Below are positions 12,771-15,836 of a DNA stretch of 64,000 nt, piece by piece. Source of the stretch: Klebsiella phage vB_Kpn_K54_rec1; the sequence record PQ569687.1. One strand, written 5' to 3'. Numbering within the stretch: the first letter of the stretch is position 1; each line of letters opens with the position of its first letter. The notes under the pieces are model-generated. The model was not told the origin of the DNA. It saw nothing but the letters and a program-made list of their open reading frames with translations, and searched no databases. Made by a program: the position numbers and the translations under genes.

Positions 12771-13006
12771 GCAGACTTGCAAAACTAAACAGAAGAAAGA
12801 AGATGTTGAAAGAAAAGCAGAAAAACATCACGGCTACTTTCCAAGTATGCCGAGAGGCTATGAAGGCAAATCGGATAACACCTTCGCAGAGACAGTTGAT
12901 CCGTGATATTCTTCGTCCTGTTCTCCACGACCTTGAAGGTGAAGTTCGTGATGTTACACTTCATATTCAAGAGGAACTTGTAAAAAGATATCAGGAGAAT
13001 ACATGA
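12767..13006 (+). CDS. hypothetical protein
   Basis: 79 aa ORF with an overlapping start and stop. Confidence 0.4.
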   Translation: MSRLAKLNRRKKMLKEKQKNITATFQVCREAMKANRITPSQRQLIRDILRPVLHDLEGEVRDVTLHIQEELVKRYQENT

Positions 13007-13596
13007 TTGACCATGTTACGTCAGACACTCACTGGTGGCATACCAACATCCTTGGTTTCCCATCGTGTGATAAATTCCGTAAGAATCTGTACGGTCAAAA
13101 AGAAGACCGTGAAAGTCTGTATGCCATGAATGCAGGTATGATTGAAATCTGGAATAAGCACGTCAAACCAGATGATGTCGTAGCACACCTTGGTGACTTC
13201 GTGATCGCTTACGGTCGCTACGTTGAGCCACGCACTCGTGATATTCTGGAAAAGATCAACGGAAAGATCATTCTTATTGGTGGTAACCATGACAACCGAG
13301 ATACGAAACGTATCTTCCGTGAATTCGGTCATGAAGTTGTTGATTATAAAGAGATTAACTTCAGCACTGGAAAAGAGAAGGTGCATGTGTGTATGTCTCA
13401 CTATCCGTTCGCATCGTGGAACAAAGCACACCACGGGTCAGTTATGTTGCACGGGCATAGCCACGGCTCCTATACAGCCCCCGGTGGACGTATTCTCGAT
13501 GTAGGTTGGGATGTTCATGGTCGTCCTCTGACGATGCGTGAGGCCGTCCTGATGTGCCTCAAAAAACCAATCTACACTGCTGACCACGGAGAATAA
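13003..13596 (+). CDS. calcineurin-like metallophosphoesterase (candidate polynucleotide 2',3'-phosphatase or Ser/Thr phosphatase)
   Basis: It has the motifs GDFVI (GDxx), GGNHD (GNHD/E) and later His-rich motifs. Confidence 0.6.
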   Translation: MIDHVTSDTHWWHTNILGFPSCDKFRKNLYGQKEDRESLYAMNAGMIEIWNKHVKPDDVVAHLGDFVIAYGRYVEPRTRDILEKINGKIILIGGNHDNRDTKRIFREFGHEVVDYKEINFSTGKEKVHVCMSHYPFASWNKAHHGSVMLHGHSHGSYTAPGGRILDVGWDVHGRPLTMREAVLMCLKKPIYTADHGE

Positions 13597-13597
13597 G

Positions 13598-13954
13598 ATG
13601 CATAACAAAGAACGAAATTTCATAGCACGTAACACGGCGAAGTCTTTCTTCGCTACTATTCACATTGCCGGGGATTATGCTCAGGCCAAGAATTTGTGTC
13701 GCCATTGGGTTATGCAAGGTGCTTGTGTGCAGATTGCTCCATGCATCTATGTTTACACAGGTGGTGTCGAAGATGGTATGACTGTGCGGTTGATGCAGTA
13801 TCCACGTTTCCAGCGTCAGGAGCATGAGATATTATCAATGGCTGTCGAACTTGGAAAATATCTTGCTCAGGAGATGTGCCAGATAAGCTTCAGTATCGAA
13901 ACTCCTTATAATACAACATATTATCAGGCGGAAGGTTATGAAAAAAGATCTTGA
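13598..13954 (+). CDS. hypothetical protein
   Basis: 118 aa ORF. Confidence 0.4.
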   Translation: MHNKERNFIARNTAKSFFATIHIAGDYAQAKNLCRHWVMQGACVQIAPCIYVYTGGVEDGMTVRLMQYPRFQRQEHEILSMAVELGKYLAQEMCQISFSIETPYNTTYYQAEGYEKRS

Positions 13955-14103
13955 TCTTATCCATAACGTGGCCTTTTTGATTAGCGAGCTTGAAGAATAT
14001 GTTGACGAACTAGACCTGAGCATCTATGATGACTACAGTGAAATGAAATCAGCACAAAAAGAAGTGCTCAAACTATTGAAAAATCTCAGACGAAGGAGAG
14101 AAC

Positions 14104-15081
14104 ATGAAATTCAACGTAGACGATTTGGTCGATAAAAAACTGGTAACCAAAAAGACTTACACCGAAGGCCCGTTCGCGGGTCTGTCTGTGCTGAAGTATA
14201 AGAACAATGTGTTCTGGGATAACCTGTGGCATACTGACCCACGACTGCTTGAGTGCCGTGGCATGGTTGTTGATGCAGATAACAACGTTGTTATCTGGCC
14301 TTTCACTAAGATTTTCAACCGCTTCGAGAATGGAACTGACCTTTCGGCAGATAGGTTGGTCGATGCAGCTCGGAAAGTGAACGGATTCATGGCATCTGCT
14401 GGGGTATATAAAGGGCAATTGGTGGTGTCAACAACAGGAACCCTTGAGTCAGAATTTGCAGTTATGGCTAAGAATCATATCATTTCCGAGTGCAATGATA
14501 TTGAGCACTTTATCAAATGGACTGCGAATGCAAAAGCAACGTTCCTATTCGAGATCTGCGATCCTTCTGATCCGCACATTATTGCGGAAGATGCGGGTGC
14601 TTACCTGATCGGTGTGCGTATCCAGAATCCTGACGGCACAAGCTTCATGTTGCCGGAAGGCGCTCTTGACGGTCTTGCAAATGTGACAAAGTTCAAGCGC
14701 CCAGTTGTTCATCAGATGATTAAATTCTCTGATGTTGTTGAAATGTCCAAGAAATGTCAGCACGAAGGATATGTTGTTCGTGATCCAAACTATCCATTCA
14801 GTCTGCTCCTTAAAATCAAGTCACCACACTATCTCGCGAAGAAATTTCTAATGCGTGGAGGTGATAACAAGTGGGATATGATCTGGGATAACCCGAAAGA
14901 GGCCAAGAAGCGTATTGACGAAGAGTATTACGAGTTGCTTGACCATATCCGCGAGTATTACTCTAAAGATGACTGGGCTGGGATGGATTCTCAAAAACGA
15001 CGTCAGGTTGTTGAAGATTACTTCGCTATCGAAGACATGTTTGGTCGTGGTAGTCGTTTTTATGTTGGGGTTCCAAAATGA
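14104..15081 (+). CDS. RNA ligase (Rnl/nucleotidyltransferase superfamily)
   Basis: It has motif I KVNGF, motif IV HEGYVVRD and motif V LLLKIKSPHY in the canonical order. Confidence 0.65.
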   Translation: MKFNVDDLVDKKLVTKKTYTEGPFAGLSVLKYKNNVFWDNLWHTDPRLLECRGMVVDADNNVVIWPFTKIFNRFENGTDLSADRLVDAARKVNGFMASAGVYKGQLVVSTTGTLESEFAVMAKNHIISECNDIEHFIKWTANAKATFLFEICDPSDPHIIAEDAGAYLIGVRIQNPDGTSFMLPEGALDGLANVTKFKRPVVHQMIKFSDVVEMSKKCQHEGYVVRDPNYPFSLLLKIKSPHYLAKKFLMRGGDNKWDMIWDNPKEAKKRIDEEYYELLDHIREYYSKDDWAGMDSQKRRQVVEDYFAIEDMFGRGSRFYVGVPK

Positions 15082-15422
15082 TTATCTGGCTTGATGACCT
15101 GAGAGATCCAAAAGACTACGGGTATCCTGATGCCTTGTGGTTCAAGACCTCTCAGAAATTTATGGACTTTCTGGACAACAGGTCAAAGTTCTATCGTTAT
15201 GTCACAGAGTGGCATTTCGATAATGACCTTGGTGAAGAGTCAGAAATGGAGGGCTATGACTGCCTGTTGGCCTTGGAAGAGAAGCTTGTGTATGGAAAAC
15301 TTCCTGTGCATGATGCTAAACTCTATGTCCATACGTCTAACCCTTCTGCGGCACAAAAGTTCATGCTTGCAAAAGAGAGCTTCTTGAAGTATCGTATCAC
15401 GATCTTAAGAAACAATTACTGA
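15078..15422 (+). CDS. hypothetical protein
   Basis: 114 aa ORF. Confidence 0.4.
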   Translation: MIIWLDDLRDPKDYGYPDALWFKTSQKFMDFLDNRSKFYRYVTEWHFDNDLGEESEMEGYDCLLALEEKLVYGKLPVHDAKLYVHTSNPSAAQKFMLAKESFLKYRITILRNNY

Positions 15423-15431
15423 GGAGAAGAG

Positions 15432-15836
15432 ATGGAAAAGACTCTGATTATCCTGCGTGGTGTGTCTGGTGCTGGTAAGTCTACAGTTGCTGAAACAATC
15501 GCGGGTAAAGCATGGCCTGTATTTGAGGCCGATAAATACCATTATCGGGACGGGGTTTACGACTGGAAGCCTGAAAACATGGCTGTTGCTCATAAGTGGT
15601 GTCAAGAACAGGTACGTGAGGCTATGGTGTGCCGTATTGCAAAAATTATCGTATCCAACACTTCGACAACAGAGAAGGAACTAAAACCCTACATTGCCCT
15701 TGCTGATGAGCACGGATACCAAGTTATTAGCTTGGTGGTCGAGAATAGGCATGGTAATGATTCTATTCACAATGTTCCGCAGGAAACTCGTGATGCTCAA
15801 GAGCTTCGTCTGCGTAACTCATTGAAATTACAGTAA
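15432..15836 (+). CDS. P-loop kinase (candidate polynucleotide 5'-kinase)
   Basis: It has a Walker A motif GVSGAGKST near the N-terminus. At 134 aa it is the size of an isolated kinase domain. Confidence 0.5.
   Translation: MEKTLIILRGVSGAGKSTVAETIAGKAWPVFEADKYHYRDGVYDWKPENMAVAHKWCQEQVREAMVCRIAKIIVSNTSTTEKELKPYIALADEHGYQVISLVVENRHGNDSIHNVPQETRDAQELRLRNSLKLQ

Follow-up and report, generated by a model that had tools for sequence, protein, structure and literature searches.

The window, a stretch of 64,000 nucleotides (nt) from Klebsiella phage vB_Kpn_K54_rec1 (PQ569687.1), carries on its + strand, at positions 13003-15836, a compact gene cassette that raises the question of whether this phage is equipped to repair broken RNA. 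A preliminary description of the sequence had read the cassette as an RNA heal-and-seal system, in which a phosphoesterase, an Rnl-type RNA ligase and a P-loop kinase are encoded by separate genes next to a Sir2 gene and an ATP-dependent DNA ligase gene. The five genes are all present, and the heal-and-seal reading is supported by protein folds, by profile comparisons, by gene linkage and by the genes found around homologs of the kinase. We consider it probable that the cassette is an early-expressed RNA end-healing and sealing system, corresponding to a split version of T4 Pnkp plus Rnl1 or of bacterial Pnkp. The predicted healing and sealing of RNA ends is well supported by sequences and models, and we infer in addition a tRNA target and a counter-defence purpose.

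The predicted sealing enzyme is encoded at positions 14104-15081 (+), by a gene for a 325-amino-acid (aa) ATP-dependent RNA ligase of the Rnl1 type. Its product matches the Pfam family PF09511 (RNA_lig_T4_1) over the entire profile (positions 1-227 of 227, E 4e-14, 53.4 bits for a cut-off of 28.3) and phrog_562, the T4 Rnl1 family (E 1e-72), which bears the PHROG name "RNA ligase and tail fiber protein attachment catalyst". The motifs noticed earlier are present as quoted, with KVNGF at aa 91-95 (nt 14374-14388), EGYVV at aa 221-225 (nt 14764-14778) and LLKIK at aa 235-239 (nt 14806-14820). Nucleotidyltransferase motifs I (KxxG), III, IV and V are kept. Residues R52, K69, F71, K91, G94, E150, E221, G222, K237 and K239 are invariant in 28 homologs sharing 48-86% identity and align respectively to R54, K75, F77, K99, G102, E159, E227, G228, K240 and K242 of T4 Rnl1; we take R54, K75, F77, G102, E159, E227, G228, K240 and K242 to be among the residues reported as essential in that enzyme. 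K91 is the predicted adenylylation site. Comparison with T4 RnlA by hhalign gave 96% probability and an E-value of 1.5e-9, and T4 Rnl1 was the sole protein found by a profile search of the PDB (E 1e-9), which did not reach Trl1. The AlphaFold2 model of the ligase (pLDDT 87) was ranked by Foldseek closest to T4 Rnl1 (E 6e-13), then to the fungal Trl1 ligase domain (Trl1-LIG) and then to archaeal Rnl3, the highest TM-score being obtained with Trl1-LIG (up to 0.67, about 0.6 for T4 Rnl1). Rnl2, Rnl5 and DNA ligases were much weaker matches, DNA ligases having E-values of 6e-5 or weaker. Sequence and model together support an Rnl1/Trl1-like RNA ligase rather than an enzyme of the DNA ligase type. 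A DNA-specific role is also unlikely because a separate DNA ligase is encoded 1.8 kb downstream. The C-terminal all-helical domain of T4 Rnl1 gives this enzyme its tRNA specificity. In the model of the window ligase, the helical region following motif V spans residues 241-313, about 75 aa for about 120 aa in T4 Rnl1; the profile alignment ends at T4 Rnl1 residue 268, and the Foldseek alignment covers most of T4 Rnl1 with a high rmsd.

The kinase gene (15432-15836, +) encodes a minimal P-loop protein of 134 aa with a polynucleotide-kinase fold, predicted to be a 5'-OH RNA kinase. The Walker A motif on which the preliminary description had relied is found at aa 10-18 (GVSGAGKST), and the likeness to polynucleotide kinases now comes from both fold and profile. 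The protein matches PF13671 (AAA_33, E 2e-10) and phrog_505 (polynucleotide kinase, E 1e-9), and the 22 best PDB matches of its model (pLDDT 91.7) in Foldseek are all polynucleotide kinases, namely CthPnk, T4 Pnk and one fungal Trl1 kinase. Pnkp1 and mammalian PNKP are also in the list, ranked lower, and a clear gap separates the polynucleotide kinases from nucleoside monophosphate (NMP), nucleoside and NadR-type kinases. The kinase family profile aligns with T4 PseT residues 1-149, the whole kinase domain, with 97% probability and an E-value of 5e-11. The P-loop Lys and Ser and the general-base Asp are K15, S16 and D35 in the T4 enzyme and K21, S22 and D38 in the Clostridium thermocellum (Cth) enzyme. 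In our family alignment of 108 sequences, the corresponding K16 is kept in 107, position 17 is Ser or Thr in 107, and D34 is kept in all 108; T77, equivalent to T4 T86 and Cth T80, which touch the first phosphodiester, is kept in 106, and an H-x-V-P motif is essentially invariant. Assignment as an NMP, deoxynucleoside monophosphate (dNMP) or nucleoside kinase was rejected from the fold ranking together with the gene context. We therefore file the protein as a polynucleotide-kinase-fold enzyme of a distinct clade, which is not a proven canonical Pnk.

The first gene of the cassette (13003-13596, +) encodes a 197-aa metallophosphoesterase (MPP) that matches PF00149 (Metallophos, E 2e-6) and phrog_547 (E 4e-50). 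The five metal-binding motifs of PF00149 (DxH, GD, GNH[DE], H and GHxH) are all intact, and the corresponding positions D8-x-H10, G64-D65, G94-N95-H96(-D97), H133 and G151-H152-x-H154 are invariant or nearly so in 28 homologs. We propose MPP as the predicted 3'-end healer, acting as a 2',3'-cyclic phosphodiesterase and/or 3'-phosphatase; in most lineages, its gene neighbors that of the kinase and/or that of the ligase. The phosphoesterase had been placed two genes upstream of the ligase and likened to the bacterial Pnkp type, and both statements need correction. It is the third gene upstream, with ORFs at 13598-13954 and 13938-14135 in between, and the PDB profile search gave the Aquifex protein aq_1665 as best match (1xm7, E 2e-21), followed by GpdQ and Rv0805; the same search found neither lambda phosphatase nor CthPnkp, and a lambda-phosphatase/Pnkp-type assignment was rejected. 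The unfused architecture is borne out, the three activities being encoded by separate genes and the Pnkp profile TIGR04075 reaching only 16 bits, for a cut-off of 750, with the kinase alone. The "phage phosphatase" described for NARP1 in 2026 was also considered as an explanation of MPP and discarded, since it is a Macro/Poa1p-type protein and not an MPP.

Between the ligase and the kinase lies a gene (15078-15422, +) for a 114-aa protein that matches PF20274, the cyclic-phosphate processing receiver domain (cREC), with an E-value of 2e-17 and 64 bits for a cut-off of 27. The preliminary description had counted it among the interleaved ORFs of unknown function, which no longer holds for this gene; with cREC, a fourth predicted end-processing activity is added to the cassette. 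The invariant residues D6, D7, D48 and G59 are present, and so are D50, H85 and N88, which are invariant or nearly so in 32 sequences. Searches of the PDB with the single sequence and with a profile gave no match, and no solved relative was found. The cREC family was defined in 2021 by the group of Iyer et al., and its activity on cyclic phosphates, be it at 2',3'-cyclic phosphate RNA ends or on ADPR 1''-2'' cyclic phosphate, is a prediction (PMC7824862, PMC9503650). From its sequence, we predict cREC to be a metal-independent cyclic-phosphate or phosphate hydrolase that would act as an accessory or alternative 3'-end healer. The family is small, 1.8 billion representatives having yielded 147 clusters of it (50% identity); one member of the representative library (P0501, 265 aa) is fused to the peptidyl-tRNA hydrolase PTH2 (E 2e-28), and weak N-terminal fusion signals were seen with a Clp1-type P-loop (P0494) and with a PTP/DSP phosphatase (P0482). 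The cREC proteins of Proteus phage PM135 and Yersinia phage phiR1-37 are solitary, with no detectable homolog of the cassette genes nearby, and were set aside.

To see how firmly these genes are tied to one another, loci of other phages were scanned with hidden Markov models (HMMs) built from the alignments made in this analysis. In the window and nine other sampled lineages, a stretch of at most about 3 kb holds MPP, ligase and kinase, with differing gene order. In Vequintavirus rV5, the opposite strand carries kinase and MPP, which diverge from ligase-cREC-Sir2-MazG; Phapecoctavirus ESCO5 (locus L003) and Justusliebigvirus Bas60 both have cREC-x-x-MPP-ligase-kinase and no Sir2. The order is MPP…ligase-kinase-PRS-x-NAMPT in Pakpunavirus PAK_P1 (L016), ligase-kinase-x-MPP in Saclayvirus Aci05 (L017), MPP-ligase-kinase in Plateaulakevirus phiA009 and MPP-x-ligase-x-kinase-PRS in Otagovirus VCM, and the triad is also present in two metagenome contigs. 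Since the linkage is kept despite the shuffled order, MPP, ligase and kinase are likely to be functionally coupled.

The same association was observed in an environmental sample of 80 IMG/VR loci that were seeded on the kinase alone (31-50% identity). MPP is found in 41 of them, always on the kinase strand and within 100 nt in 19, and the Rnl1-type ligase in 32. A second type of RNA ligase, detected with an HMM made from the corresponding proteins of about 380 aa, occurs in 18 loci, so that either type is found in 47, directly adjacent (<100 nt) in 12. Counting cREC as well, 55 of the 80 loci have a ligase, MPP or cREC partner. In all six MPP-kinase loci without the Rnl1 type that we tested, an approximately 380-aa protein is encoded about 1 kb away and combines an OB fold (PF21189) with PF09414, an architecture that we take to be that of Rnl5 ligases. 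Because the same kinase-MPP pair combines with two RNA ligase types, these two proteins would serve to prepare RNA ends. Sir2 is found in one of the 80 loci, NARP1 genes in two and the DNA ligase family of the window in four. The conserved core is thus MPP, ligase and kinase; Sir2 and cREC are variable, and MazG and NARP1 are lineage-specific neighbors. Eight environmental loci have kinase, ligase and cREC without MPP, which suggests that cREC can stand in for MPP. Among loci with the Rnl1 type, cREC and MPP are anticorrelated (Fisher p 4e-5 per locus, p 2e-4 after 90% clustering), but the value becomes 0.27 after 70% single-linkage clustering of the kinases, and mutually exclusive 3' healers are suggestive at most. 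No cREC was detected in L025 (IMG/VR UViG_2974603165_000001, 147 kb), a Vequintavirinae-like locus in which NAMPT, PRS, MPP, ligase, kinase, Sir2, DNA ligase and MazG are ordered as in the window; cREC thus seems dispensable even within this lineage. In L012 and L013, the kinase has no recognizable ligase, MPP or cREC nearby, and the two neighboring proteins of about 326 aa had no Pfam match.

From these elements, a repair pathway can be proposed. A ribonuclease that works without metal, the most plausible candidate being a host anticodon nuclease or some other defence RNase, would cut tRNA or another RNA and leave ends that bear a 2',3'-cyclic phosphate and a 5'-OH. The dinuclear MPP and/or cREC would turn the 2',3'-cyclic phosphate (or a 3'-phosphate) into a 3'-OH, and the PNK-fold kinase would phosphorylate the 5'-OH, its P-loop contributing K16 and S17 and D34 serving as general base. 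The break would then be sealed by the Rnl1-type ligase by way of a K91-AMP intermediate. The core of this pathway would consist of MPP, ligase and kinase, and cREC would be accessory, apparently able to replace MPP. By analogy with T4, whose Pnkp and Rnl1 repair tRNA-Lys and so counter the PrrC anticodon nuclease, the target is most plausibly a tRNA nicked in the anticodon loop.

Several observations weigh against this proposal. MPP belongs, by its profile matches, to the uncharacterized aq_1665 clade and lies outside the lambda-phosphatase/Pnkp clade. In the ligase, the position of T4 Rnl1 K119, a residue that we assume to be essential, is occupied by T111, within an invariant S-T-T-G motif. 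In the lid of the kinase, where R120 and R123 of the Cth enzyme hold the gamma phosphate, only one Arg is conserved (R106), plus H107 and H113, and T4 R126 aligns to the variable position 110. The kinase also has H37 where T4 R38 and Cth R41, three residues after the Asp, anchor the first phosphodiester of the acceptor and are essential (PMC3902929); this position is His or Phe in 103 of the 108 sequences and never Arg, the rest being gaps or Met. An invariant, family-specific R9 stands immediately before the P-loop and might compensate for this Arg. In the environmental sample, 25 of the 80 loci have no partner at all within 6 kb of the kinase, several of these being short contigs. In cultured phages, the cassette stands repeatedly beside genes related to nicotinamide adenine dinucleotide (NAD), which leaves room for a metabolite-directed role of some of its components. 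Finally, in the literature on the cassette, on cREC and on RNA repair in Vequintavirinae, we found no experimental work.

The NAD-related neighbors also bear on a different route of repair, resembling that of Trl1 and Tpt1 and dependent on NAD+, along the lines of Iyer et al. (2022). Here the cyclic phosphate would be opened by cREC or MPP so as to give a 2'-phosphate, kinase and ligase would act in the way proposed above, and Sir2 would remove the 2'-phosphate by ADP-ribosyl transfer, the resulting ADP-ribose products being disposed of or recycled by MazG, MPP and NARP1. In the window, the Sir2, MazG and NARP1 genes are all within 12 kb of the cassette, and the same neighborhood is described in PMC9503650; PRS and NAMPT homologs flank the ligase-kinase pair in PAK_P1, VCM, Aci05 and L010, some phage NARP1 operons carry a homolog of Poa1p, the phosphatase acting on a by-product of yeast tRNA splicing, and the ligase model fits Trl1-LIG (TM 0.67) at least as well as T4 Rnl1 (~0.6). 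However, the ligase profile finds only T4 Rnl1 in the PDB and not Trl1, and Sir2 is missing from the cassette in the Stephanstirmvirinae as well as in Pakpunavirus, Saclayvirus, Plateaulakevirus and Otagovirus; of the 80 loci seeded on the kinase, 79 lack it. Its family is widespread (990 phage records) and reaches 52-65% identity in T5-like phages. NARP1, for its part, has a demonstrated stand-alone anti-defence role, and a 2'-phosphotransferase activity is unproven for any sirtuin, PMC9503650 putting it forward as a proposal. We regard this route as unlikely. Its fullest form would make the cassette, Sir2 and NARP1 a phage version of the eukaryotic Trl1/Tpt1 pathway that joins RNA repair and the reconstitution of NAD+ in a single counter-defence circuit: cREC would represent a Rec-fold RNA 2',3'-cyclic phosphodiesterase of a new, metal-independent kind that leaves a 2'-phosphate, a sirtuin, and not KptA/Tpt1, would remove this phosphate using NAD+, and NARP1 would rebuild NAD+ from ADP-ribose. 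Such a circuit appears rather improbable to us.

It is also possible to imagine that MPP, cREC and the kinase act on small nucleotides or molecules derived from ADP-ribose (ADPR), such as ADPR-cyclic phosphate, ADPR-1''-phosphate or cyclic-nucleotide immune signals, in NAD+ reconstitution or signal degradation, the RNA ligase being an unrelated neighbor in an anti-defence island. In six of the sampled lineages, the cassette does stand next to NARP1. ADPR-cyclic phosphate arises from the breakdown of ADPR-PP while NARP1 acts, and cREC is a predicted opener of cyclic phosphates. The Arg by which polynucleotide kinases anchor the phosphodiester is missing from the kinase, and the nearest characterized relatives of MPP, GpdQ and Rv0805, are small-molecule phosphodiesterases. 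Against this, the neighbors of the kinase in the seeded sample are mainly the two RNA ligase types (47/80) and MPP (41/80) and seldom NARP1 (2/80), the triad occurs with no NARP1 nearby in rV5, ESCO5, phiA009 and L014, the kinase resembles polynucleotide kinases in fold much more than it does nucleoside, NMP or NadR-type kinases, and at least one cREC is fused to a tRNA enzyme, PTH2. A metabolite-directed function of these three proteins therefore seems unlikely. The least likely of the alternatives concerns DNA: kinase and MPP would heal 5'-OH/3'-phosphate nicks for the DNA ligase encoded 1 kb downstream, in the manner of mammalian PNKP, and the Rnl1 homolog would be employed elsewhere, for instance in tail-fibre attachment as reported for T4 gp63. 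In the window as well as in rV5, ESCO5, Bas60, PAK_P1, VCM, phiA009 and L010, an ATP-dependent DNA ligase gene does form part of the gene string, T4 Pnk and CthPnk also accept DNA ends (PDB 1rrc, 4mde), and the PHROG name of the ligase family includes tail fiber attachment. In the kinase-seeded loci, though, the DNA ligase family occurs in four for 47 with RNA ligases, an RNA ligase lies within 100 nt in 12, and where the Rnl1 type is missing it is the other RNA ligase type that replaces it, and not a DNA ligase; we hold this reading to be very improbable. The kinase-seeded sampling thus argues against all three alternatives as the core function of the cassette.

The RNA end-healing and sealing system that we favor can be compared with three known ones. 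Like T4 Pnkp (PseT) plus RnlA, it combines three predicted chemistries, 3' healing, 5' phosphorylation and Rnl1-type sealing; the ligase is homologous to RnlA and the kinase to the kinase domain of PseT, and in both cases the genes are early genes of a virulent myovirus, early expression being predicted for the window. Unlike in T4, where the kinase is fused to a HAD (DxDxT) phosphatase, the phosphatase of the window would be a separate dinuclear MPP, with a Rec-fold cREC in addition. The T4 residues K119 of the ligase and R38 of Pnk are replaced by Thr and His, respectively, the helical region of the ligase is shorter, and the cassette forms one tight cluster, whereas 1.4 kb and four other genes separate those of Pnkp and RnlA in T4. 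The combination of a kinase, a metallophosphoesterase and a ligase recalls bacterial Pnkp (Clostridium thermocellum) and the three-protein complex Pnkp1-Rnl-Hen1 (PDB 4xrp); the latter shows that one repair machine can be formed when healing and sealing reside on separate polypeptides (PMC4411300). The window differs from bacterial Pnkp in being unfused, with an MPP of the aq_1665 clade and a ligase of the Rnl1 type instead of a Pnkp-type domain. No Hen1-annotated gene was present in the related records, no search aimed at Hen1 having been made. As for fungal and plant Trl1 plus Tpt1, the Trl1 ligase domain is the second-best structural match and the one with the highest TM-score, and a ligase, a kinase and a cyclic-phosphate healing activity are combined in Trl1 as they are predicted to be in the window. 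Here, the differences are that the cyclic phosphodiesterase of Trl1 is a 2H enzyme and that a 2'-phosphate and Tpt1 are required in its pathway; neither domain scans of the ten cassette ORFs nor the annotated relatives of the region showed a gene of the 2H or KptA/Tpt1 kind.

The cassette is already known as a computational prediction, and our finding, though correct, is not new. The same neighborhood was described in Escherichia phage V5 and Proteus phage Mydo by Iyer, Burroughs, Anantharaman and Aravind (2022, Viruses 14:1977; PMC9503650, section 3.7.3), who predicted in silico that it performs RNA end clean-up and ligation. All six genes of their type 2 sirtuin-linked neighborhood (sirtuin, T4-like ligase, cREC, kinase and MazG, plus a calcineurin-like phosphoesterase that is optional) are found at 13003-19880 (+), and phage Mydo, a member of the same genus, shares 98.7% identity with the window over the aligned 83% of 13003-15836. 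GenBank records of relatives also label the RNA ligase, the phosphoesterase and the cREC-domain protein, and that of Bas60 a polynucleotide kinase as well. In comparison with Iyer et al. (2022), whose account centers on the sirtuin and NAD+, we find MPP, ligase and kinase to be the stable core, and their "nucleotide kinase" is placed by its predicted fold with polynucleotide kinases rather than with nucleotide kinases. We also add that the pairing of kinase and MPP is seen again alongside a second type of RNA ligase and that cREC may be an alternative 3' healer. If the proposal is true, phages well beyond the T4 group, among them rV5-like and phi92-like therapy phages and Pseudomonas PAK_P1-like phages, carry a modular kit that repairs RNA cut by defence nucleases. 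Its parts would be interchangeable, the same kinase working with an MPP or a cREC healer and with an Rnl1-type or an OB-fold-type ligase, and the kit would help to explain which tRNA- or RNA-cleaving defences such phages escape. It would also provide a first activity for the cREC domain, for aq_1665-type phosphoesterases and for a polynucleotide-kinase clade without the acceptor-binding arginine. Related and tractable E. coli phages exist, namely rV5 and the BASEL phages Bas60 and Bas63.

With regard to its genomic setting, the segment 13003-15836 is 100% identical to Klebsiella phage vB_Kpl_K54lambda1.1.1 and, over the aligned 83%, 98-99% identical to Klebsiella phages BIS47, KpS8 and KpS11 and to Proteus phage Mydo. 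KpS11 is classified in the genus Mydovirus of the Vequintavirinae, and by these sequence matches the window is that of a Mydovirus, an rV5-like virulent myovirus of about 140 kb. Genes of the cassette abut or overlap, with intergenic gaps of -32 to +9 nt, and most are preceded by Shine-Dalgarno sequences. A sigma-70-like promoter (TTGACA, 16 nt spacer, TAGAAT), matching the consensus at 11 of 12 positions and identified from this match only, lies at 11726-11753 (+) in a divergent promoter region, and no terminator-like site was found on the + strand after it until about 18627. It is the likely start of a rightward early transcription unit that would contain the cassette, and co-transcription of the cassette genes from this site is plausible.

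Three small ORFs of unassigned function accompany the cassette. The 118-aa ORF (13598-13954, +; phrog_4848, E 3e-50) has a homolog in Pakpunavirus PAK_P1 (L016:1585-1977, E 2e-21), where it follows the DNA ligase at 424 bp and a single ORF separates the two, and no phrog_4848 homolog was detected in the scanned Stephanstirmvirinae clusters. The 65-aa ORF (13938-14135, +; phrog_32298) overlaps both its neighbors and has homologs in close relatives only, and the 74-aa ORF (15845-16069, +; phrog_343) follows the kinase. The membership of the 118-aa and 74-aa ORFs in the system is uncertain; neither gave a usable Pfam, NCBIfam or PDB match, the best being to NudC with a non-significant E-value of 0.3.

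Sir2 is encoded at 16066-16842 (+; 258 aa, PF02146, E 1e-23) and is a lineage-specific neighbor, followed by the ATP-dependent DNA ligase gene (16842-18146, +). In the three Vequintavirinae loci examined and in L025, Sir2 stands next to the cassette, and in Phapecoctavirus anhysbys it lies about 30 kb away; the Sir2 family of the window occurs in 990 phage records, including the genes of T5-like phages (Demerecviridae) that share 52-65% identity. Iyer et al. (2022) proposed that Sir2 removes a 2'-phosphate in the manner of KptA/Tpt1 (PMC9503650), and such a removal is not supported as a core function of the cassette. The NAD-binding motif GAGxS (aa 9-17) is retained in Sir2, as is the catalytic His (IHGY, aa 112-115). 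A single Cys stands between this His and the FGE motif, and the usual four-cysteine zinc module is apparently missing.

On the other side of the divergent promoter region, and divergent from the cassette, are a Nampt-like gene of the NAPRTase family (7988-9721, -; 577 aa) and a Prs-like gene (9729-10529, -; 266 aa). They are homologous to the Prs-like/Nampt-like pair of the related phage Bas63, which constitutes the NARP1 NAD+ reconstitution operon (Adps plus Namat), and such a pair flanks ligase-kinase directly in PAK_P1, VCM, Aci05 and the metagenome locus L010. A gene for a MarR/HTH plus T5orf172 protein (10526-11107, -; 193 aa, with the MarR/HTH domain N-terminal) stands between the NARP1 genes and the divergent promoter region. 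The window also has 13 tRNA genes at 1-6737 (-), for Lys-UUU, Ser (two), Gln, Glu, Gly, Ile, Tyr, Cys, Leu, Thr and Met (two), and a gene for a CCA-adding tRNA nucleotidyltransferase at 41363-42610 (+; 415 aa, PolyA_pol E 4e-21, C-terminal HD E 6e-5). Clearly, this phage invests in tRNA supply and maintenance, which speaks for the proposed pathway. Several of the isoacceptors in the tRNA cluster are known targets of anticodon nucleases. The CCA-adding enzyme may give the phage a second means of repairing the 3' ends of tRNA.

The comparison of loci also brought minor observations. The second-type ligases of L023, L026, L028, L047, L071 and L080 are encoded about 1 kb downstream of the kinase and have an N-terminal OB fold (PF21189, PHA02142). 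Two annotations appear to be wrong: the cREC gene of ESCO5 (8001-8345) is recorded as "putative RNA ligase and tail attachment protein", and the MPP gene of Aci05 (6622-7263, profile E 5e-38) as "phosphohydrolase (MutT/nudix family protein)". In the environmental locus L045, an ORF directly upstream of the kinase homolog (4937-5998, +) resembles a glutamate-receptor-type ligand-gated ion channel, with matches to SBP_bac_3 (E 2e-20), Lig_chan-Glu_bd and Ion_trans_2, which is unusual for a viral contig.

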